This document shows positions 37,690 through 59,605 of a DNA stretch of 64,000 nt, in pieces. The stretch is from Escherichia coli (GTDB taxonomy: Bacteria > Pseudomonadota > Gammaproteobacteria > Enterobacterales > Enterobacteriaceae). Every line of letters begins with the position of its first letter. The first letter of the stretch is position 1. The notes under the pieces were generated by a model. That model did not search any database, was not told the origin of the DNA, and was given only the letters and a program-made list of their open reading frames with translations. Made by a program: the position numbers and the translations under genes. The stretch is taken from NCBI RefSeq assembly GCF_003334255.1, contig NZ_QOWU01000015.1, one strand, 5' to 3'.

Positions 37690-37690
37690 C

Positions 37691-37872
<182 letters not shown>

Positions 37873-37939
37873 AACAGGTACAAACGCCACGATAAAAAAA
37901 TGGCACTGAAGGTTAAATACCCGACTAAATCAGTCAAGT

Positions 37940-38538: not shown

Positions 38539-38649
38539 TAAAAAGAATTCAGAATCAGGCCGGAGTGCTAAATACTCCGTAAACACGGTCGTACATCCAG
38601 CCGGTAGCCTGATTCCTTGCATTGAGTGATGTACGGAGTTTATAGAGCA

Positions 38650-45247: not shown

Positions 45248-46024
45248 ATGTCCGAAACAAAAAACGAACTTGAAGACCTGCTGGAAAAAGCAGCAACTGA
45301 ACCGGCGCACCGCCCGGCCTTTTTCCGTACTCTACTGGAATCCACCGTCTGGGTGCCTGGTACGGCGGCGCAGGGCGAGGCTGTGGTTGAAGATAGCGCG
45401 CTTGATTTACAGCACTGGGAAAAAGAAGACGGCACCAGCGTCATTCCTTTTTTCACCTCGTTAGAAGCACTTCAACAGGCGGTTGAAGACGAACAGGCAT
45501 TTGTCGTAATGCCCGTTCGCACGCTGTTTGAGATGACACTTGGCGAAACGCTCTTCCTTAATGCCAAACTGCCAACCGGTAAAGAATTTATGTCGCGTGA
45601 AATCAGTTTGTTGATTGGTGAAGAGGGAAATCCGCTGAGCAGCCAGGAAATCCTGGAAGGCGGTGAATCGCTGATATTATCGGAAGTCGCAGAGCCGCCA
45701 GCACAAATGATTGATTCACTCACCACCTTATTTAAAACCATTAAGCCGGTGAAGCGTGCTTTTATTTGTTCAATTAAAGAGAACGAAGAGGCACAGCCTA
45801 ATTTACTTATTGGCATTGAAGCCGATGGTGATATCGAAGAAATTATTCAGGCGACGGGAAGTGTAGCGACCGATACATTACCTGGCGATGAACCAATCGA
45901 TATTTGTCAGGTGAAAAAAGGGGAAAAAGGAATTAGCCACTTTATTACCGAACATATTGCGCCATTCTATGAACGTCGCTGGGGTGGTTTTTTGCGTGAC
46001 TTTAAACAGAATCGGATAATCTAA
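45248..46024 (+). CDS. sseB: SseB, enhancer of serine sensitivity (start alternatives: GTG 45239 or ATG 45248)
   Basis: MSETKNELEDLLEKAATEPAHRPAFF...; synteny with sseA. Confidence 0.85.
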   Translation: MSETKNELEDLLEKAATEPAHRPAFFRTLLESTVWVPGTAAQGEAVVEDSALDLQHWEKEDGTSVIPFFTSLEALQQAVEDEQAFVVMPVRTLFEMTLGETLFLNAKLPTGKEFMSREISLLIGEEGNPLSSQEILEGGESLILSEVAEPPAQMIDSLTTLFKTIKPVKRAFICSIKENEEAQPNLLIGIEADGDIEEIIQATGSVATDTLPGDEPIDICQVKKGEKGISHFITEHIAPFYERRWGGFLRDFKQNRII

Positions 46025-46028
46025 AATA

Positions 46029-46047
46029 TGCCGCCCAAAGGGCGGCA
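46029..46047. terminator. Short GC hairpin between the sseB stop and the small ORF stop; possible bidirectional terminator
   Basis: tgccgccc-aaa-gggcggca; U-rich sequence follows on the minus strand. Confidence 0.4.
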
Positions 46048-46054
46048 TTCGGGC

Positions 46055-46180
46055 TTACTTGCTGCTCTGAAGGTTGTTAACCACCAGTAAATTGTCGCCG
46101 GAGAGACTCCGGTTATTATTTACCTCGGTTAACAGCGCACCAGAAACAATAAGTACGATACAAAAGCACCGTATCTTCAT
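46055..46180 (-). CDS. Candidate 41-aa small hydrophobic protein (type I toxin-like; possibly the ryfA/timP class)
   Basis: ATG...TAA ORF translating MKIRCFCIVLIVSGALLTEVNNNRSLSGDNLLVVNNLQSSK; hydrophobic N-terminal 17 residues; not in the supplied ORF track (below its size cut-off). Confidence 0.4.
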   Translation of the reverse strand: MKIRCFCIVLIVSGALLTEVNNNRSLSGDNLLVVNNLQSSK

Positions 46181-46310
46181 TGTGCGGTCCATGCGAAGAC
46201 CGCATCACGACAGCACCACTGGCGATATTGCCGCGATAGCAAGCGCTGTGAAACACCTGCATTTACGGCCACGGAACATCCTTTCCTAAAGCCAGCGCCC
46301 GTTTGCGAGA

Positions 46311-46507
46311 CGGCGGAAAGGGCCGCAGTGGATAATACACTAACAGAACAATAATAACTCTCTTTTGCTTGACAAAAAGAGAGTTACTGGCGAGTATTGT
46401 CTCCGCTGAGACGCGCTTGCATTACTACGGTAATACAACCTGCTGGAAAGGCCGCGAACCGGACCAGCAACAAAAAACCGCCTGATTTTGGCGGTTTTTT
46501 GTTTTTT
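46311..46507 (+). repeat. Direct repeat copy 1 of an sRNA-like module
   Basis: Begins cggcggaaagggccg; contains perfect 9-bp-stem hairpin ctctctttt-gcttgaca-aaaagagag with TTGACA in the loop; ends ccgcc..ggcgg plus T-run. Confidence 0.7.
46404..46507 (+). ncRNA. Candidate ~100-nt sRNA 1 (antitoxin-like); predicted, not verified
   Basis: TTGACA (46369..46374), 17-bp spacer, gagtat (46392..46397); Rho-independent terminator at 46478..46507. Confidence 0.3.
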
Positions 46508-46632
46508 AAAGGAAAGTGAATTTACATGTTTAAGTAATATCTTTTACCGGTTAGAATTTTTAATTTTGAGCAGGATTTGTTTATATTTGTCTGAATTCAG
46601 ACTAATAAGCCAGGTTATTTTATTACCGAACA

Positions 46633-46826
46633 CGGCGGAAAGGGCCGGTGTCGATAATACGCTAAATAAACAATAATTACTCTCTTTTGCTTGACAAAAA
46701 GAGAGTTACTGGTGAGTATTGTTTTGCTGTGAAGCACCTGCGTTGCTCATGTAACACAAGTCAACCTGCTGGAAAGGCCGCGAACCAGACTAGCAATAAA
46801 AAACCGCCAAATTCGGCGGTTTTTTA
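46633..46826 (+). repeat. Direct repeat copy 2 of the same module
   Basis: Same start box, same 9-bp hairpin (46680..46705), same gctggaaaggccgcgaacc box, same terminator type; about 322-bp period. Confidence 0.7.
46726..46826 (+). ncRNA. Candidate ~100-nt sRNA 2 (sibling of sRNA 1); predicted, not verified
   Basis: TTGACA (46691..46696), 17-bp spacer, gagtat (46714..46719); terminator at 46804..46825, which also lies just downstream of sseA on the other strand. Confidence 0.3.
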
Positions 46827-46841
46827 TTGCCTGTAAAATAC

Positions 46842-47687
46842 TTATTTCACTGGCTCAACCGGTAAATCTGCCCGCGCGCCCCATTCACTCCATGCGCCGT
46901 CGTACAGTTTCACGTTTGGCACATCCAGCGTCGCGAGTGCTAACAAAACCACGGCTGCCGTTACACCAGAGCCGCAGCTGACGATAATTGGTTTGTCGTA
47001 GCTGACGCCGCGACCAAAAAATATCGCATCCAGTTCATCGGTCGTTTTTAGTTCGCCTTCGCGCACCAGTTCCGTCCACGGAACATTCAGTGCTCCGGGA
47101 ATATGTCCGCGACGTAAACCTGGGCGAGGTTCATCAACTTCTGCGTTAAAACGTGCAGCCGGGCGGGCATCAATAATTTGCGCCGTATTTTCATGGCTTG
47201 CCAATAATACATCGGTTACTTTCACCACGGCTTCAGGATTAAACGCGGCGTTAAACTCTCCTTCCGGCAGCTCTACTGCACCTTCTTCTAACAGCAGATC
47301 ATCGCGCTGCCAGCCTGCAAGTCCACCCCCCAGAATCGACACTTTCTCTACACCAAAGGTGCGCAGCATCCACCATGCTCGTGGGGCTGAGAAAAGATTA
47401 CCTTCGTCATAGACAATCAGGTGCTTATCCTGGTTAACGCCTAATTCACGCATCGCCACGGCGAACGTTTCCGGGCGCGGCAGCATGTGCGGAAGCGGGG
47501 AAGTGTGATCAGAAAGCGCTTCGATATCAAAAAACACTGCGCCGGGAATATGTCCATTCAGATACTCCTGAGCAACGTTACGATCCTCCTGTCCAGGCGA
47601 CGCCATGCGGGCATCGATAATCTGAATTTCCGGGTCATCAATATGTTCGGCGAGCCAGTCGGCTCCTACAAACCATGTCGTGGACAT
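46842..47687 (-). CDS. sseA: 3-mercaptopyruvate sulfurtransferase (281 aa)
   Basis: MSTTWFVGADWLAEHIDDPEIQIIDARM...; rhodanese catalytic CGSGVTA; track ORF trimmed to the ATG at 47687. Confidence 0.93.
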   Translation of the reverse strand: MSTTWFVGADWLAEHIDDPEIQIIDARMASPGQEDRNVAQEYLNGHIPGAVFFDIEALSDHTSPLPHMLPRPETFAVAMRELGVNQDKHLIVYDEGNLFSAPRAWWMLRTFGVEKVSILGGGLAGWQRDDLLLEEGAVELPEGEFNAAFNPEAVVKVTDVLLASHENTAQIIDARPAARFNAEVDEPRPGLRRGHIPGALNVPWTELVREGELKTTDELDAIFFGRGVSYDKPIIVSCGSGVTAAVVLLALATLDVPNVKLYDGAWSEWGARADLPVEPVK

Positions 47688-47893
47688 AGGCATCTCCATT
47701 TTTGCCGGGGTTAGGCTAAATTGTCGGATGTTTAGTGAAAAGCGACAAGCAAAAGAGGCTGATTTGGCTGTCTGAGCCACAATTCTCACTAAAATTCGGA
47801 TTGTATGGGCGTGATACTGAATTACATAACGTAAATTCTCACGCATAATAATTATTCGACGTTGCTAACGGGCCATTGTGGCAGGGATGAAAA

Positions 47894-50800
47894 ATGAAAA
47901 AGTTACGCGTAGCCGCCTGCATGCTAATGCTGGCGCTGGCAGGGTGCGACAACAACGATAACGCGCCAACAGCGGTGAAAAAAGATGCGCCTTCTGAAGT
48001 TACTAAAGCGGCCTCTTCAGAAAACGCGAGTTCAGCAAAACTCTCCGTGCCGGAGAGACAAAAACTGGCCCAACAGAGTGCCGGTAAGGTGCTGACATTG
48101 CTGGATCTCTCTGAAGTCCAACTTGATGGTGCAGCCACGCTGGTGCTGACGTTCTCCATCCCTCTCGACCCGGATCAGGATTTCTCACGCGTTATTCATG
48201 TCGTCGATAAAAAAAGCGGCAAAGTGGATGGTGCCTGGGAGCTGTCAGATAATCTTAAAGAGTTACGTTTACGCCACCTCGAACCGAAACGTGATTTGAT
48301 CGTTACTATTGGCAAGGAGGTCAAAGCACTCAACAACGCAACCTTCAGTAAAGATTACGAAAAAACTATAACTACCCGCGACATCCAACCCAGCGTCGGT
48401 TTTGCCAGCCGTGGTTCGCTGCTGCCTGGCAAAGTCGTTGAAGGGCTGCCGGTAATGGCGCTCAACGTTAATAATGTCGATGTTAACTTCTTCCGCGTTA
48501 AGCCAGAATCTCTGCCAGCATTCATTAGCCAATGGGAATACCGCAATTCGCTGGCGAACTGGCAGTCAGACAAACTGCTGCAGATGGCGGATCTGGTCTA
48601 CACCGGACGGTTTGATCTCAATCCTGCGCGTAACACCCGTGAAAAATTATTGCTGCCGCTGGGCGATATCAAACCGCTTCAGCAGGCGGGCGTGTATCTG
48701 GCTGTGATGAATCAGGCTGGACGTTACGATTACAGTAATCCCGCGACGCTGTTTACGTTAAGTGATATCGGCGTTTCAGCTCACCGTTATCACAATCGTC
48801 TGGATATCTTTACCCAAAGTCTGGAAAACGGCGCGGCCCAGCAAGGAATTGAAGTCTCTTTATTAAATGAGAAAGGGCAGACTCTGACTCAGGCAACCAG
48901 TGACGCTCAGGGGCATGTGCAGCTGGAAAATGATAAAAACGCGGCATTACTGTTGGCGCGTAAAGACGGTCAGACAACGCTACTCGATTTAAAACTTCCG
49001 GCGCTGGACTTAGCAGAATTTAACATTGCTGGCGCGCCAGGCTATAGCAAACAGTTTTTCATGTTTGGCCCACGCGATCTTTATCGCCCAGGTGAAACGG
49101 TAATCCTCAATGGTTTGCTGCGTGATGCAGACGGTAAAGCGTTGCCCAATCAACCCATCAAGTTAGACGTGATTAAACCCGATGGGCAGGTACTCAGGAG
49201 CGTCGTTAGTCAGCCGGAGAATGGCCTCTACCACTTTACCTGGCCACTCGATAGCAATGCGGCAACCGGTATGTGGCATATTCGCGCTAACACGGGCGAT
49301 AATCAGTATCGGATGTGGGATTTCCACGTCGAAGATTTTATGCCAGAGCGCATGGCGCTGAATCTGACCGGTGAGAAAACCCCGCTAACGCCGAAAGATG
49401 AAGTGAAATTCTCCGTGGTGGGGTACTACCTGTATGGTGCACCTGCTAATGGTAATACTTTGCAAGGGCAACTTTTCCTGCGCCCACTGCGTGAAGCTGT
49501 GTCAGCCTTACCTGGTTTTGAATTCGGCGATATAGCTGCCGAAAATCTTTCCCGCACGCTGGATGAAGTTCAGTTGACGCTGGATGATAAAGGGCGCGGC
49601 GAAGTTTCTACAGAAAGCCAGTGGAAGGAAACGCATTCCCCATTACAGGTTATTTTCCAGGGTAGTTTGCTGGAATCGGGCGGTCGCCCGGTGACGCGCC
49701 GCGCTGAGCAGGCTATCTGGCCTGCCGATGCATTGCCGGGGATCCGTCCGCAGTTCGCCTCGAAATCGGTTTACGATTATCGTACTGACAGCACGGTGAA
49801 ACAGCCCATTGTTGATGAAGGCAGTAACGCCGCTTTTGACATCGTTTATAGCGATGCGCAAGGCGTGAAAAAAGCCGTGTCGGGCTTGCAGGTGCGCCTG
49901 ATTCGCGAACGCCGCGATTACTACTGGAACTGGTCAGAAGATGAAGGCTGGCAGTCACAGTTTGATCAAAAAGATCTGATCGAAAATGAACAAACTCTGG
50001 ATCTGAAAGCGGACGAAACCGGCAAGGTCAGTTTTCCGGTAGAGTGGGGCGCTTATCGTCTGGAAGTCAAAGCGCCGAATGAAGCGGTCAGTAGTGTTCG
50101 TTTCTGGGCTGGCTATAGCTGGCAGGACAACAGCGACGGTAGCGGCGCAGTGCGACCCGACCGTGTCACGCTGAAACTGGATAAAGCCAGTTATCGCCCT
50201 GGCGACACCATTAAGTTGCATATCGCCGCGCCAACGGCGGGTAAAGGTTATGCGATGGTCGAGTCCAGTGAAGGGCCGCTGTGGTGGCAAGAGATTGATG
50301 TTCGGGCTCAAGGGCTGGATCTGACGATTCCGGTCGATAAAACCTGGAATCGTCATGATCTGTATTTAAGTACGCTGGTGGTACGTCCTGGCGATAAATC
50401 TCGCTCCGCGACGCCAAAACGCGCGGTTGGTGTGTTGCATCTGCCGCTTGGCGATGAAAACCGTCGCCTCGATCTGGCGCTGGAAACACCAGCAAAAATG
50501 CGTCCCAATCAACCATTAACCGTGAAAATTAAAGCCAGCACTAAAAATGGCGAGAAGCCTAAACAGGTGAATGTGCTGGTGTCTGCCGTTGATAGTGGTG
50601 TGCTGAATATTACTGACTACGTCACGCCAGATCCGTGGCAGGCGTTCTTTGGTCAGAAACGCTATGGCGCAGACATTTACGATATTTACGGTCAGGTTAT
50701 TGAAGGTCAGGGGCGTCTGGCAGCTCTGCGTTTCGGTGGCGATGGTGATGAGCTGAAACGTGGTGGTAAACCGCCGGTCAATCACGTCAATATTGTCGTG

Positions 50801-52855
50801 CAGCAGGCGCTGCCGGTAACGCTCAACGAACAGGGCGAAGGCTCGGTTACACTGCCGATTGGCGATTTTAACGGTGAATTGCGCGTCATGGCGCAAGCCT
50901 GGACGGCAGATGACTTCGGTAGCAACGAAAGTAAAGTGATAGTTGCCGCACCGGTGATTGCTGAACTGAACATGCCGCGCTTTATGGCGAGTGGCGATAC
51001 CTCGCGTCTGACGCTGGATATCACTAATCTTACCGATAAACCGCAAAAACTGAACGTTGCCCTGACCGCCAGTGGTTTGCTTGAACTGGTCAGCGATTCA
51101 CCCGCAGCCGTTGAATTAGCGCCAGGTGTGCGTACTACGCTGTTTATCCCGGTGCGAGCATTGCCGGGTTATGGCGATGGAGAAATTCAGGCCACCATTA
51201 GCGGGTTAGCGTTACCGGGTGAAACCGTTGCCGATCAGCATAAGCAGTGGAAAATCGGCGTCCGTCCGGCGTTCCCGGCACAAACGGTTAATTACGGTAC
51301 GGCGTTACAGCCTGGTGAGACATGGGCGATTCCGGCGGATGGATTGCAAAACTTCTCGCCTGTTACGCTGGAAGGGCAATTGTTGTTGAGCGGCAAACCA
51401 CCGCTGAACATCGCACGTTATATCAAAGAGTTAAAAGCGTATCCGTACGGCTGTCTTGAGCAAACCGCCAGCGGCCTGTTTCCGTCACTTTATACCAACG
51501 CAGCCCAACTGCAGGCGTTGGGCATCAAAGGCGACAGTGATGAGAAACGCCGTGCATCGGTCGATATCGGCATTTCCCGTTTGCTGCAAATGCAACGTGA
51601 TAACGGCGGCTTTGCGCTGTGGGATAAAAACGGTGACGAAGAGTACTGGCTGACGGCTTACGTGATGGATTTCCTGGTCCGCGCAGGCGAACAGGGTTAC
51701 AGCGTGCCGACAGACGCCATTAACCGGGGTAATGAGCGTCTGCTGCGCTATTTACAAGATCCGGGCATGATGTCGATCCCGTACGCGGATAATCTCAAAG
51801 CCAGTAAATTCGCCGTACAGTCTTACGCTGCGCTGGTGTTGGCCCGTCAGCAAAAGGCTCCGCTGGGTGCGCTGCGTGAAATCTGGGAGCATCGTGCAGA
51901 TGCCGCTTCTGGTTTACCGCTGCTGCAACTTGGCGTTGCGCTGAAAACCATGGGTGATGCGACGCGTGGTGAAGAAGCGATTGCGCTGGCGCTGAAAACG
52001 CCGCGTAATAGTGATGAGCGGATATGGCTGGGTGATTACGGTAGTTCACTGCGCGACAACGCGTTAATGCTCTCCTTGCTGGAAGAAAATAAACTGCTAC
52101 CCGATGAGCAGTACACTTTGCTGAACACACTTTCGCAGCAGGCGTTTGGTGAACGCTGGCTATCGACGCAGGAAAGTAACGCGTTGTTCCTGGCTGCCCG
52201 TACGATTCAGGATTTACCCGGTAAATGGCAGGCGCAAACCTCTTTCTCAGCTGAGCAGCTGACAGGCGAGAAAGCGCAAAACAGCAATCTGAATAGCGAT
52301 CAACTTGTCACCTTGCAGGTGAGCAACAGTGGCGATCAGCCGTTATGGTTGTGTATGGATGCCAGCGGTTATCCGCAATCCGCACCTTTACCGGCGAACA
52401 ATGTGCTGCAAATCGAGCGTCATATTCTTGGTACTGATGGTAAGAGCAAATCGCTGGACTCGTTACGTAGCGGCGATCTGGTGCTGGTGTGGTTGCAGGT
52501 AAAAGCCAGTAACAGCGTGCCGGATGCGTTAGTCGTGGATCTGCTGCCTGCGGGTCTGGAACTGGAAAACCAGAATCTGGCGAACGGTAGCGCCAGCCTG
52601 GAGCAAAGTGGTGGCGAAGTGCAGAACTTACTGAACCAGATGCAGCAGGCGAGCATTAAGCACATTGAGTTCCGTGACGATCGCTTTGTGGCGGCGGTTG
52701 CCGTTGATGAATACCAACCGGTAACGCTGGTGTATCTGGCGCGGGCGGTGACGCCGGGAACGTATCAGGTACCGCAACCGATGGTGGAATCAATGTATGT
52801 TCCCCAATGGCGGGCGACCGGCGCGGCTGAAGATCTGCTGATTGTCAGACCGTAA
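47894..52855 (+). CDS. yfhM: Alpha-2-macroglobulin-family lipoprotein (1653 aa)
   Basis: Lipobox LAGC in the signal peptide; thioester motif CLEQ (YGCLEQTASG). Confidence 0.95.
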   Translation: MKKLRVAACMLMLALAGCDNNDNAPTAVKKDAPSEVTKAASSENASSAKLSVPERQKLAQQSAGKVLTLLDLSEVQLDGAATLVLTFSIPLDPDQDFSRVIHVVDKKSGKVDGAWELSDNLKELRLRHLEPKRDLIVTIGKEVKALNNATFSKDYEKTITTRDIQPSVGFASRGSLLPGKVVEGLPVMALNVNNVDVNFFRVKPESLPAFISQWEYRNSLANWQSDKLLQMADLVYTGRFDLNPARNTREKLLLPLGDIKPLQQAGVYLAVMNQAGRYDYSNPATLFTLSDIGVSAHRYHNRLDIFTQSLENGAAQQGIEVSLLNEKGQTLTQATSDAQGHVQLENDKNAALLLARKDGQTTLLDLKLPALDLAEFNIAGAPGYSKQFFMFGPRDLYRPGETVILNGLLRDADGKALPNQPIKLDVIKPDGQVLRSVVSQPENGLYHFTWPLDSNAATGMWHIRANTGDNQYRMWDFHVEDFMPERMALNLTGEKTPLTPKDEVKFSVVGYYLYGAPANGNTLQGQLFLRPLREAVSALPGFEFGDIAAENLSRTLDEVQLTLDDKGRGEVSTESQWKETHSPLQVIFQGSLLESGGRPVTRRAEQAIWPADALPGIRPQFASKSVYDYRTDSTVKQPIVDEGSNAAFDIVYSDAQGVKKAVSGLQVRLIRERRDYYWNWSEDEGWQSQFDQKDLIENEQTLDLKADETGKVSFPVEWGAYRLEVKAPNEAVSSVRFWAGYSWQDNSDGSGAVRPDRVTLKLDKASYRPGDTIKLHIAAPTAGKGYAMVESSEGPLWWQEIDVRAQGLDLTIPVDKTWNRHDLYLSTLVVRPGDKSRSATPKRAVGVLHLPLGDENRRLDLALETPAKMRPNQPLTVKIKASTKNGEKPKQVNVLVSAVDSGVLNITDYVTPDPWQAFFGQKRYGADIYDIYGQVIEGQGRLAALRFGGDGDELKRGGKPPVNHVNIVVQQALPVTLNEQGEGSVTLPIGDFNGELRVMAQAWTADDFGSNESKVIVAAPVIAELNMPRFMASGDTSRLTLDITNLTDKPQKLNVALTASGLLELVSDSPAAVELAPGVRTTLFIPVRALPGYGDGEIQATISGLALPGETVADQHKQWKIGVRPAFPAQTVNYGTALQPGETWAIPADGLQNFSPVTLEGQLLLSGKPPLNIARYIKELKAYPYGCLEQTASGLFPSLYTNAAQLQALGIKGDSDEKRRASVDIGISRLLQMQRDNGGFALWDKNGDEEYWLTAYVMDFLVRAGEQGYSVPTDAINRGNERLLRYLQDPGMMSIPYADNLKASKFAVQSYAALVLARQQKAPLGALREIWEHRADAASGLPLLQLGVALKTMGDATRGEEAIALALKTPRNSDERIWLGDYGSSLRDNALMLSLLEENKLLPDEQYTLLNTLSQQAFGERWLSTQESNALFLAARTIQDLPGKWQAQTSFSAEQLTGEKAQNSNLNSDQLVTLQVSNSGDQPLWLCMDASGYPQSAPLPANNVLQIERHILGTDGKSKSLDSLRSGDLVLVWLQVKASNSVPDALVVDLLPAGLELENQNLANGSASLEQSGGEVQNLLNQMQQASIKHIEFRDDRFVAAVAVDEYQPVTLVYLARAVTPGTYQVPQPMVESMYVPQWRATGAAEDLLIVRP

Positions 52856-55168
52856 ATGCCTCGCTTGTTAACCAAACGCGGCTGCTGGATAACGTTGGCA
52901 GCCGCGCCCTTTCTCCTTTTTCTTGCAGCGTGGGGAGCAGATAAACTCTGGCCTCTACCGCTGCATGAAGTCAATCCCGCACGAGTGGTCGTGGCGCAGG
53001 ATGGTACGCCGCTCTGGCGCTTCGCCGATGCTGACGGCATCTGGCGTTATCCGGTAACAATCGAAGATGTTTCTCCACGTTACCTTGAAGCGCTGATCAA
53101 TTATGAAGATCGCTGGTTCTGGAAGCATCCGGGGGTGAATCCATTCTCGGTGGCGCGCGCAGCATGGCAAGATCTCACTTCGGGACGGGTTATTTCCGGT
53201 GGCAGCACGCTCACTATGCAGGTTGCTCGTCTGCTTGATCCTCACCCCAAAACATTTGGCGGCAAAATTCGCCAGCTCTGGCGCGCGTTGCAACTGGAAT
53301 GGCATCTGTCTAAGCGTGAAATTCTGACCTTGTATCTTAACCGCGCTCCGTTTGGCGGTACGTTGCAGGGGATCGGTGCGGCAAGTTGGGCTTATCTCGG
53401 AAAATCGCCTGCGAATTTAAGCTATTCCGAGGCGGCAATGCTGGCGGTTTTGCCGCAAGCGCCCAGCCGTCTTCGCCCGGATCGTTGGCCGGAGCGTGCC
53501 GAAGCCGCGCGTAATAAAGTGCTCGAACGGATGGCCGTGCAAGGTGTGTGGTCCCGTGAGCAGGTAAAAGAGTCAAGGGAAGAACCCATCTGGCTGGCCC
53601 CCCGACAAATGCCGCAACTGGCACCGCTGTTTTCGCGCATGATGCTCGGTAAAAGCAAAAGCGACAAAATCACTACTACGTTGGATGCCGGTCTTCAACG
53701 ACGTCTGGAAGAACTGGCGCAAAACTGGAAAGGGCGGTTGCCACCGCGCAGCTCACTGGCGATGATCGTGGTTGATCATACCGATATGCGTGTTCGCGGC
53801 TGGGTGGGATCGGTTGATCTCAACGATGATTCACGCTTTGGTCATGTTGATATGGTCAATTCGATCCGATCGCCAGGATCAGTGCTCAAACCGTTTGTTT
53901 ATGGTCTGGCGCTGGATGAAGGCTTGATCCACCCGGCATCACTGCTGCAAGACGTCCCCCGGCGCACCGGTGATTATCGACCAGGTAACTTTGATAGCGG
54001 TTTTCATGGCCCGATCAGCATGAGCGAGGCGCTGGTGCGCTCGCTGAACTTACCTGCTGTGCAGGTGCTGGAAGCCTATGGACCGAAACGGTTTGCGGCA
54101 AAGTTACGCAATGTTGGATTGCCGTTATATTTGCCCAACGGTGCTGCGCCGAATCTTTCACTCATTCTCGGCGGCGCTGGTGCAAAACTGGAAGATATGG
54201 CGGCAGCGTATACCGCGTTTGCTCGCCACGGCAAGGCAGGCAAATTGCGCTTACAGCCTGACGATCCGCTGCTTGAACGGCCTTTAATGTCGTCGGGGGC
54301 GGCGTGGATCATTCGCCGGATTATGGCTGATGAAGCGCAACCCTTGCCGGATAGTGCCTTGCCGCGCGTCGCCCCACTGGCATGGAAAACGGGCACCAGC
54401 TATGGCTATCGTGACGCCTGGGCGATTGGGGTTAACGCTCGCTATGTCATTGGGATCTGGACTGGCAGACCGGACGGCACGCCCGTTGTTGGTCAGTTTG
54501 GCTTTGCCAGTGCCGTACCATTGTTGAATCAGGTCAATAATATCTTACTGTCGCGCAGTGCGAATCTGCCGGAAGACCCGCGCCCGAACTCAGTCACTCG
54601 TGGCGTTATCTGCTGGCCGGGCGGACAGTCTTTGCCGGAAGGTGACGGTAACTGTCGCCGCCGCCTGGCAACCTGGCTGCTGGACGGGAGTCAGCCGCCA
54701 ACTCTATTACTGCCGGAGCAGGAAGGCATTAATGGCATTCGTTTCCCCATCTGGCTGGATGAAAATGGCAAACGTGTTGCCGCTGATTGCCCGCAAGCGC
54801 GACAAGAAATGATAAATGTCTGGCCGCTACCGCTGGAACCCTGGCTGCCCGCATCAGAACGTCGCGCTGTGCGCTTACCACCGGCCTCGACAAGTTGCCC
54901 GCCATACGGTCACGATGCCCAGCTCCCGCTGCAGCTGACAGGCGTTCGCGATGGCGCGATTATTAAACGTTTACCGGGCGCAGCGGAAGCGACTTTGCCG
55001 TTGCAATCAAGTGGAGGGGCAGGTGAACGCTGGTGGTTTCTGAATGGCGAACCGTTAACTGAACGCGGGCGCAACGTGACCCTGCATTTGACGGATAAAG
55101 GTGATTATCAATTGCTGGTGATGGATGACGTGGGGCAAATCGCGACAGTGAAATTTGTCATGCAATAG
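52856..55168 (+). CDS. pbpC: Penicillin-binding protein 1C
   Basis: Glycosyltransferase and transpeptidase domains; ATG immediately follows the yfhM TAA. Confidence 0.95.
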   Translation: MPRLLTKRGCWITLAAAPFLLFLAAWGADKLWPLPLHEVNPARVVVAQDGTPLWRFADADGIWRYPVTIEDVSPRYLEALINYEDRWFWKHPGVNPFSVARAAWQDLTSGRVISGGSTLTMQVARLLDPHPKTFGGKIRQLWRALQLEWHLSKREILTLYLNRAPFGGTLQGIGAASWAYLGKSPANLSYSEAAMLAVLPQAPSRLRPDRWPERAEAARNKVLERMAVQGVWSREQVKESREEPIWLAPRQMPQLAPLFSRMMLGKSKSDKITTTLDAGLQRRLEELAQNWKGRLPPRSSLAMIVVDHTDMRVRGWVGSVDLNDDSRFGHVDMVNSIRSPGSVLKPFVYGLALDEGLIHPASLLQDVPRRTGDYRPGNFDSGFHGPISMSEALVRSLNLPAVQVLEAYGPKRFAAKLRNVGLPLYLPNGAAPNLSLILGGAGAKLEDMAAAYTAFARHGKAGKLRLQPDDPLLERPLMSSGAAWIIRRIMADEAQPLPDSALPRVAPLAWKTGTSYGYRDAWAIGVNARYVIGIWTGRPDGTPVVGQFGFASAVPLLNQVNNILLSRSANLPEDPRPNSVTRGVICWPGGQSLPEGDGNCRRRLATWLLDGSQPPTLLLPEQEGINGIRFPIWLDENGKRVAADCPQARQEMINVWPLPLEPWLPASERRAVRLPPASTSCPPYGHDAQLPLQLTGVRDGAIIKRLPGAAEATLPLQSSGGAGERWWFLNGEPLTERGRNVTLHLTDKGDYQLLVMDDVGQIATVKFVMQ

Positions 55169-55231
55169 TCTGTTTTGTCCCTGATTGTTGCTAAAACTCA
55201 TTTTATTTTAAAAAAATGTTACCTTCATCAA

Positions 55232-55260
55232 TAGTCAACGGCCCTGTTGCTCATTATAAT
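55232..55260 (+). promoter_or_regulatory. Putative sigma70 promoter of ndk
   Basis: tagtca (-35-like), 17-bp spacer, tataat. Confidence 0.35.
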
Positions 55261-55316
55261 CCGCGCCATCTCGTACGCTGGTACAGACAACAACAGAACA
55301 ATTTACAGAGGTAAAA

Positions 55317-55748
55317 ATGGCTATTGAACGTACTTTTTCCATCATCAAACCGAACGCGGTAGCAAAAAACGTCATTGGTAATATCTTTGCGCGCTTTGAA
55401 GCTGCAGGGTTCAAAATTGTTGGCACCAAAATGCTGCACCTGACCGTTGAACAGGCACGTGGCTTTTATGCTGAACACGATGGAAAACCGTTCTTTGATG
55501 GTCTGGTTGAATTCATGACCTCTGGCCCGATCGTGGTTTCCGTGCTGGAAGGTGAAAACGCCGTTCAGCGTCACCGCGATCTGCTGGGCGCGACCAATCC
55601 GGCAAACGCACTGGCTGGTACTCTGCGCGCTGATTACGCTGACAGCCTGACCGAAAACGGTACCCACGGTTCTGATTCCGTCGAATCTGCCGCTCGCGAA
55701 ATCGCTTATTTCTTTGGCGAAGGCGAAGTGTGCCCGCGCACCCGTTAA
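55317..55748 (+). CDS. ndk: Nucleoside diphosphate kinase
   Basis: [36 protein letters not shown]...NGTHGSDS. Confidence 0.97.
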
Positions 55749-58376: not shown

Positions 58377-59495
58377 ATGCATAACCAGGCTCCAATTCAA
58401 CGTAGAAAATCAACACGTATTTACGTTGGGAATGTGCCGATTGGCGATGGTGCTCCCATCGCCGTACAGTCCATGACCAATACGCGTACGACAGACGTCG
58501 AAGCAACGGTCAATCAAATCAAGGCGCTGGAACGCGTTGGCGCTGATATCGTCCGTGTATCCGTACCGACGATGGACGCGGCAGAAGCGTTCAAACTCAT
58601 CAAACAGCAGGTTAACGTGCCGCTGGTGGCTGACATCCACTTCGACTATCGCATTGCGCTGAAAGTAGCGGAATACGGCGTCGATTGTCTGCGTATTAAC
58701 CCTGGCAATATCGGTAATGAAGAGCGTATTCGCATGGTGGTTGACTGTGCGCGCGATAAAAACATTCCGATCCGTATTGGCGTTAACGCCGGATCGCTGG
58801 AAAAAGATCTGCAAGAAAAGTATGGCGAACCGACGCCGCAGGCGTTGCTGGAATCTGCCATGCGTCATGTTGATCATCTCGATCGCCTGAACTTCGATCA
58901 GTTCAAAGTCAGCGTGAAAGCGTCTGACGTCTTCCTCGCTGTTGAGTCTTATCGTTTGCTGGCAAAACAGATCGATCAGCCGTTGCATCTGGGGATCACC
59001 GAAGCCGGTGGTGCGCGCAGCGGGGCAGTAAAATCCGCCATTGGTTTAGGTCTGCTGCTGTCTGAAGGCATCGGCGACACGCTGCGCGTATCGCTGGCGG
59101 CCGATCCGGTCGAAGAGATCAAAGTCGGTTTCGATATTTTGAAATCGCTGCGTATCCGTTCGCGAGGGATCAACTTCATCGCCTGCCCGACCTGTTCGCG
59201 TCAGGAATTTGATGTTATCGGTACGGTTAACGCGCTGGAGCAACGCCTGGAAGATATCATCACTCCGATGGACGTTTCGATTATCGGCTGCGTGGTGAAT
59301 GGCCCAGGTGAGGCGCTGGTTTCTACACTCGGCGTCACCGGCGGCAACAAGAAAAGCGGCCTCTATGAAGATGGCGTGCGCAAAGACCGTCTGGACAACA
59401 ACGATATGATCGACCAGCTGGAAGCACGCATTCGTGCGAAAGCCAGTCAGCTGGACGAAGCGCGTCGAATTGACGTTCAGCAGGTTGAAAAATAA
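58377..59495 (+). CDS. ispG: HMBPP synthase (IspG/GcpE)
   Basis: [36 protein letters not shown]... Confidence 0.96.
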
Positions 59496-59605
59496 TAACG
59501 TGATGGGAAGCGCCTCGCTTCCCGTGTATGATTGAACCCGCATGGCTCCCGAAACATTGAGGGAAGCGTTGAGGGTTCATTTTTATATTCAGAAAGAGAA
59601 TAAAC

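Follow-up and report, generated by a model that had tools for sequence, protein, structure and literature searches.

We analysed a 64,000-nucleotide (nt) stretch of Escherichia coli DNA (contig NZ_QOWU01000015.1, hereafter the window), focusing on yfhM and pbpC, which encode an alpha-2-macroglobulin (A2M) lipoprotein known as ECAM and penicillin-binding protein (PBP) 1C. It can be stated with high confidence that the pair encodes a lipidated inner-membrane A2M 'snap-trap', followed by a pbpC gene that is most likely co-transcribed and translationally coupled with it. The locus is the well-studied yfhM-pbpC gene pair of E. coli, already known and ordinary. It adds nothing new, as several crystal and electron microscopy structures of ECAM are available, the pair is annotated in every E. 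coli genome, and the idea of a trap acting with a repair enzyme dates from 2004. The genes and their junction are as follows.

47894..52855 (+): yfhM coding sequence, 1653 amino acids (aa); ECAM, the E. coli alpha-2-macroglobulin, a bacterial A2M of the thioester-containing type I (PDB, RefSeq, Pfam)
52856..55168 (+): pbpC coding sequence, 770 aa; penicillin-binding protein 1C, a class A PBP (NCBIfam, Pfam, RefSeq)
52853..52858 (+): junction of the yfhM stop and the pbpC start, TAAATG, with TAA at 52853-52855, ATG at 52856-52858 and a 0-nt spacer

All 5,426 complete E. coli genomes match positions 47600-55400 by megablast, 5,424 of them with at least 80% query coverage, and the annotated features under the match are sseA, yfhM (alpha2-macroglobulin), pbpC (peptidoglycan glycosyltransferase PbpC) and ndk. 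Compared with the K-12 MG1655 record, a single difference was found in these 7,801 bases, at 52352 (T here, C in K-12), and the PbpC protein is identical to that of K-12. YfhM aligns over its full length with PDB entries 4RTD, 4ZIQ and 5A42 (E = 0), so that the 4.96-kb open reading frame (ORF) is not a chance feature. The Salmonella protein SaA2M (4U48) matches YfhM at 3034 bits, and human A2M, C3 and CD109 are distant, weak but significant matches (E = 1e-6 to 5e-4). An NCBIfam scan of YfhM returned 0 families; that library has a gap here, and the identity is not weakened by it, since Pfam and PDB are unambiguous. PbpC reaches 1568.6 bits against the PbpC equivalog NF008414 (cut-off 1121) and 919.9 bits against TIGR02073 (PBP_1c; cut-off 494.2), and scores well below the cut-offs of the PBP1A and PBP1B equivalogs. 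Thus, the original prediction of a 1653-aa lipoprotein (ORF 47894-52855, lipobox LAGC with Cys18) followed with zero TAA-ATG spacing by PBP1C is borne out. Its wording 'fused in operon' holds for the adjacent stop and start codons and not for a fusion, as the two ORFs are separate.

The junction reads ...AGACCG TAA ATG CCT... in its context. No Shine-Dalgarno-like purine run was found in the 25 nt before the pbpC ATG, and no terminator-like hairpin on the + strand near the junction. Two genes on the same strand, with a 0-nt spacer and no terminator-like site between them, have the geometry of an operon. Because of this spacing, and because pbpC has neither a ribosome-binding site of its own nor a terminator ahead of it, we infer that pbpC is most likely co-transcribed with yfhM and coupled to it by termination-reinitiation; starting on the base after the yfhM stop, its translation would depend on that of yfhM. 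The pair has also been called an operon from gene juxtaposition (PMC4498604, PMC5764988).

The YfhM trap and its targets

The features of YfhM that bear on its function are listed below.

47894..47950 (+): signal peptide with lipobox L-A-G-C, Cys18 at 47945-47947 and Asp19 at +2, read from the translation
50660..50719 (+): core of the bait region, Arg923-Leu942 (RYGADIYDIYGQVIEGQGRL), residue range from PMC4498604
51452..51463 (+): TED-domain thioester motif, C1187-L-E-Q1190 of YPYGCLEQT
52673..52798 (+): 'lock' motifs of the C-terminal MG10 domain, RDDR (1594-1597) and ESMY (1632-1635)
52352..52354 (+): codon 1487, TGC (Cys) here and CGC (Arg) in K-12, in the CUB domain; a rare allele

The N-terminus of YfhM is MKKLRVAACMLMLALAGC, in which the lipobox cysteine, Cys18, is followed by Asp19. 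The lipobox stretch in the translation, MKKLRVAACMLMLALAG-C18-D19, is that of a lipoprotein, as in type I A2Ms. Asp at the +2 position of a lipoprotein is an inner-membrane retention signal in Lol sorting, and Asp19 therefore fits retention of YfhM at the inner membrane. ECAM has indeed been described as a periplasmic lipoprotein anchored in the inner membrane (PMC3328433, PMC4498604). Pfam recognizes, in order, bMG1, A2M_bMG2, bMG3, MG2, bMG5, bMG6, A2M_BRD, A2M, TED_complement, CUB_A2MG and bMG10, which is the type I A2M arrangement: a macroglobulin (MG) series, then the bait-region domain, TED and CUB, and MG10 at the C-terminus. The A2M_BRD match covers residues 759-905. Residues Arg923-Leu942 of ECAM are disordered after elastase cleavage in PDB 4RTD (PMC4498604).

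CLEQ at 1187-1190 is the sole CxEQ in YfhM; it lies inside the Pfam TED match and coincides in alignment with the thioester site in the ECAM crystal structures, as the predicted thioester motif should. Cys1187 and Gln1190 have been named as the ECAM thioester pair (PMC4498604). The motif Y-P-Y-G-C-x-E-Q is invariant in 81/81 aligned A2Ms, which were chosen by that same motif. Both C-terminal lock motifs of type I A2Ms, RDDR and ExMY, are found in YfhM as well; among the 81 A2Ms, the residues R/D/D/R are kept in 66-70 and M-Y in all. In native ECAM these motifs touch TED; once the protein has been activated, they touch the cleaved bait (PMC4498604). It had been suggested that the thioester chemistry and its physiological targets remain incompletely defined. 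As to the chemistry this does not hold, for it is established for ECAM by several crystal structures, by activation with methylamine and with proteases, and by covalent capture (PMC4498604, PMC3328433, PMC5764988); as to the targets it stands.

The mechanism can be outlined from these elements. YfhM would be exported, lipidated on Cys18 and held as a monomer at the inner membrane, facing the periplasm. A protease entering the periplasm would cut the exposed bait region around residues 923-942, and the freed bait would compete with the TED-MG10 contacts (RDDR, ExMY) that shield the thioester. The ensuing change of shape would expose the buried Cys1187-Gln1190 thioester, which would then react with a lysine of the attacking protease and tether it covalently, hence 'snap-trap'. 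This account of bait cleavage, thioester exposure and covalent capture comes from work on ECAM (PMC4498604, PMC3328433, PMC12939704), and it is taken as established for YfhM of the window on the strength of that literature and of its identity to the K-12 protein except at R1487C.

ECAM could be directed at bacterial proteases, either toxins of competitors or the cell's own escaped periplasmic proteases, rather than at those of a host. Inter-bacterial competition has been raised as an alternative (PMC3328433, PMC5764988), and PBP1C-linked thioester A2Ms occur in free-living Hymenobacter, Mesorhizobium, Accumulibacter and Pseudoalteromonas and in metagenome-assembled genomes (MAGs) from sediment. 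Nevertheless, elastase and other broad-spectrum proteases of host type cut ECAM in vitro (PMC4498604). We regard bacterial rather than host proteases as somewhat unlikely targets.

The allele at codon 1487 was searched with a 55-nt probe centred on the single-nucleotide polymorphism, so designed that a megablast seed is possible only when the allele is present. It was found in 3/5,426 complete E. coli genomes, namely those of strains G1/2, G6/7 and G8; the G1/2 record names the faeces of a healthy person in Germany as its source. Over 50 kb the window shows 99.98% identity with G1/2, and over 13.8 kb 99.96% with K-12; from these values it comes from a K-12-like strain. A change at a conserved residue was considered and rejected, as the column is variable across the 81 A2Ms (T/S/R/V/Q/N); given this variability, R1487C is probably neutral. 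Cys1487 brings the cysteines of mature YfhM to three, the others being Cys18 of the lipid anchor and Cys1187 of the thioester. The substitution puts an extra free cysteine into a periplasmic protein.

PBP1C and the conservation of the pairing

PbpC carries the Pfam domains Transgly (PF00912, 61-226), Transpeptidase (PF00905, 306-519) and, as its family-specific C-terminal domain, BiPBP_C (PF06832, 687-767), behind a hydrophobic N-terminal anchor at residues 11-27. Its catalytic motifs lie at the following positions.

53105..53134 (+): GT51 motif 1, E84-D-R-W-F-W-K-H-P-G, including the catalytic base Glu84
53261..53275 (+): GT51 motif 3 variant G136-K-I-R-Q140, where PBP1A-type enzymes have R-K-x-x-E, from alignments to four PBP1A structures
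53879..54394 (+): transpeptidase motifs S342-V-L-K345, S396-L-N398 and K511-T-G513, all intact

A homologue search with PBP1C returned only close relatives (a 99%-identical cluster, one 95% match and Citrobacter-type proteins at ~86%). Diversity was instead surveyed on 50%-identity cluster representatives, 150 of which were aligned with E. coli PBP1C (151 in total). Motif 1 of PbpC has the canonical form EDxxFxxHxG, with E84, D85, H91 and G93 kept in at least 141/151 family representatives, and the transpeptidase motifs SxxK, SxN and KTG are each kept in at least 139/151.

Conservation of the A2M-PBP1C pairing was examined in two samples. The first comprised the contigs of 8 diverse PBP1C-family representatives with 34-51% identity to E. 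coli PBP1C, two of which begin too near the PBP1C gene to be informative. In 4/8, a large A2M gene with YPYGCxEQ lies directly upstream, with junctions of -17, -1, +19 and +19 nt. For the second, one genome per species was scanned for a DNA pattern encoding Y-P-Y-G-C-x-E-Q, which gave at least 120 loci and is a sample, not a census; all its counts are among the listed matches. At the motif, 105 loci were confirmed as A2M by tblastn, and 58 were assessable, that is, they included the A2M stop and at least 1.5 kb downstream. A PBP1C-like gene follows on the same strand in 34/58. By homology offset, 31 of these 34 genes are less than 200 nt from the A2M gene (median ~38 nt), an estimate independent of start codons that was used in addition to the distance from the stop to the nearest start, since PBP1C start codons at these foreign loci are ambiguous and the latter is biased to small gaps. 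There are ~8 candidates for 4-nt overlaps of the ATGA or GTGA type and two 1-nt overlaps. The hosts of linked pairs belong to Bacteroidota, Verrucomicrobiota, Myxococcota, Synergistota, Aminicenantes, Hydrogenedentota, and the Alpha-, Beta- and Gammaproteobacteria. Hence the linkage and its tightness are widespread and not universal, and the wording of the literature, 'frequently' and 'in a number of bacteria', agrees with these counts. At two loci of Hymenobacter and in Pseudomonas entomophila, the PBP1C gene lies ~480-740 nt past the A2M stop, a gap wide enough for a small gene or a regulatory region in between.

Unlike motif 1, motif 3 of PbpC departs from the canonical RKxxE, having Gln140 in place of Glu; GKIRQ aligns to RKIKE, RKINE, RKITE and RKARE in the four PBP1A structures. 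We take this Glu to be the second catalytic glutamate of GT51, presumably E290 of E. coli PBP1b and E140 of Aquifex PBP1a. The column holds Q in 79 and E in 59 of the 151 aligned sequences. Q is present in every one of the ~47 top-scoring PBP1C representatives, most of which are 765-815 aa long, and takes the form GKxxQ in nearly all of them; [AS]KxxE is the state of a more distant, shorter subgroup of the family. Among the listed matches, the 34 A2M-linked PBP1Cs divide into 19 with E, 14 with Q and 1 with D, and Q occurs only in 13 Proteobacteria and one Oligoflexia MAG, the other phyla keeping E. A correlation of the Q and E types with A2M linkage was therefore rejected, as both have an upstream A2M; the substitution tracks lineage, not linkage. 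That the Gln is conserved favours a maintained, possibly altered, active site over decay.

The searchable literature, whose coverage is incomplete, contained no mention of the substitution, which may be known to specialists. Only one PBP1C phenotype was found, and it needed overproduction: LdtD-dependent NADA labelling was restored in a delta-mrcB strain (PMC6131605). No loss-of-function phenotype of PBP1C was found in the literature examined. PBP1C is reportedly unable to replace PBP1A or PBP1B. One may speculate from the alignments that GKxxQ for RKxxE alters or attenuates GT51 catalysis in proteobacterial PBP1C, or makes it conditional on a partner or on the state of the envelope, and that this explains the missing phenotype. 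Such an explanation seems doubtful to us; if true, it would give the 'repair enzyme' hypothesis a concrete and testable handle.

Expression, proposed joint role and alternative readings

Two intergenic regions flank the pair.

47688..47893 (+): divergent sseA-yfhM intergenic region, 206 nt, the presumed promoter region of yfhM-pbpC
55169..55316 (+): pbpC-ndk spacer, 148 nt, with no intrinsic-terminator-like hairpin on the + strand

The sseA-yfhM region holds one weak sigma-70-like match (47821-47849, ATTACA-17-CATAAT, 9/12). Between 47000 and 56000 there are 7 such matches, compared with 6.3 expected from shuffled sequence, so that they have no statistical support. The best of the region (55232-55260, TAGTCA-17-TATAAT, 10/12) stands just ahead of ndk. 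Since no terminator-like hairpin follows pbpC, read-through from pbpC into ndk is possible. A CpxR box has been proposed in silico ~82 nt upstream of yfhM-pbpC (PMC12291844). It was not reproduced here, as no GTAAA-N5-GTAAA with up to 2 mismatches occurs in 47688-47893. A peak of the RpoE holoenzyme in genomic systematic evolution of ligands by exponential enrichment (gSELEX) falls inside yfhM (PMC5493296). No sigma-E-like motif was found upstream of the yfhM ATG, the only loose match being at 48364, inside yfhM. By its K-12 coordinates, the gSELEX peak presumably lies near the 5' end of yfhM (window 47894-48400).

In E. coli HL15, an IS5-family transposase lies in the sseA-yfhM intergenic region (735-1703 of the HL15 locus extract), and 157 nt separate the end of its coding sequence from the yfhM start. 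In strain SF10 the match is likewise in two pieces with an IS5 annotation, the insertion being deduced from the list of blast matches. The IS5 element of HL15 may have changed the native yfhM-pbpC promoter or taken its place.

As to the joint role, the A2M would neutralise invading proteases and PBP1C would add glycan-strand synthesis to repair the wall. The original prediction called this a known module of protease trap and wall repair. It is published, yet not as a demonstrated partnership: the pairing is a hypothesis from gene juxtaposition, attributed to Budd et al. 2004 (PMC4498604, PMC3328433, PMC5764988). We likewise treat the joint role as a hypothesis, one that is published and draws on the conserved linkage of the genes.

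Several points weigh against a coupled pair with a joint role. An upstream A2M is absent in at least 2/8 PBP1C representatives of the first sample (P0137 and P0169), and a downstream PBP1C is missing in 24/58 thioester-A2M loci among the listed matches of the second. No phenotype linking YfhM and PBP1C was found reported in the literature. The promoter-like matches, being at chance level, neither place the yfhM-pbpC promoter nor exclude an internal pbpC promoter. In addition, a PBP1C with Gln at the position of the second catalytic Glu may have an attenuated or altered glycosyltransferase.

It could be argued from the incomplete linkage, and from the fact that neither a joint phenotype nor a physical interaction of ECAM with PBP1C was found reported in the literature, that the two genes are linked by co-inheritance or co-transfer only, with ECAM a stand-alone trap and PBP1C a spare glycan polymerase, functionally independent of each other. 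However, the tandem order and the tight junction recur in Bacteroidota, Verrucomicrobiota, Myxococcota, Synergistota and the Alpha-, Beta- and Gammaproteobacteria, and recurrence across such distant phyla would hardly be expected if co-expression were not selected for. Functional independence is therefore considered unlikely. That pbpC is transcribed mainly from a promoter of its own inside the 3' part of yfhM, so that zero spacing would not mean tight co-expression, is more improbable still: the RpoE gSELEX peak inside yfhM (PMC5493296) and sigma-70-like matches inside the pair, such as 53738-53766 and 54935-54963 (+), might be cited for it, but these two matches lie past the pbpC start, their count is no higher than in shuffled sequence, and a pbpC gene without Shine-Dalgarno sequence favours reinitiation by ribosomes finishing yfhM. 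The preferred reading continues to be a gene for a membrane-anchored trap followed by a pbpC that is probably coupled to it.

Besides the gene pair, the window contains several RNA features. Between sseB and sseA, Rfam identifies ryfA RNA (315 bits, 46023-46326, -) and the IS128 small RNA (260 bits, 46458-46666, -); in the K-12 and G1/2 records, the annotation of TimP, a small toxic protein of the inner membrane, overlaps the ryfA region. Other RNAs above the Rfam gathering thresholds are GlmY (8932-9079), the iscRS stability element (38539-38648), sroE (59495-59586) and naRNA4 (37751-37822). The trmJ-iscR intergenic region (~37690-37873) has an extra copy of a ~91-nt repeat compared with G1/2, where two blast segments share one subject stretch, and this copy is located in the naRNA4 or repetitive extragenic palindromic (REP)-type repeat region.

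Relation to known systems

YfhM of the window is the same protein as the ECAM of the structural studies (PDB 4RTD, 4ZIQ, 5A42, 4ZIU, 4ZJG, 4ZJH), with the same lipobox, bait, CLEQ at 1187-1190 and RDDR/ExMY motifs. K-12 ECAM differs from it by R1487C alone, in the CUB domain at a family-variable position. SaA2M of Salmonella enterica (PDB 4U48/4U4J/4U59) is its orthologue, agrees with it in length class and domain order, and is likewise a thioester lipoprotein adjoining pbpC (PMC5764988). It belongs to another species with a diverged sequence. Its structure is the reference for the locked, native state; 4RTD represents the cleaved one.

Type II A2Ms, such as E. coli YfaS and Pseudomonas aeruginosa MagD, share the periplasmic multi-MG macroglobulin fold with a bait region (PMC5764988, PMC3735191). 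Nevertheless, they have no CxEQ thioester, and their genes form part of a six-gene mag-type operon rather than adjoining pbpC; MagD is also without the lipobox cysteine (PMC3735191). With Cys18 and CLEQ present and pbpC adjoining, YfhM of the window is of type I. Human A2M, complement C3 and CD109 share with YfhM the thioester motif and an architecture of MG, TED and CUB domains, although the sequence identity of ECAM to relatives of this kind is ~12% (PMC4498604). The eukaryotic proteins of the family are secreted, and human A2M is a tetrameric 'Venus-flytrap', whereas ECAM is a monomeric, membrane-anchored 'snap-trap' (PMC12939704).

For PBP1C, the nearest comparison is with PBP1A and PBP1B (e.g., PDB 4OON, 3UDF, 3VMA), with which it shares the GT51 and transpeptidase domains, the N-terminal anchor, EDxxFxxHxG and the SxxK, SxN and KTG motifs. 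It differs from both in its additional BiPBP_C domain, in having GKIRQ and not RKxxE as motif 3, and in falling below their equivalog cut-offs.

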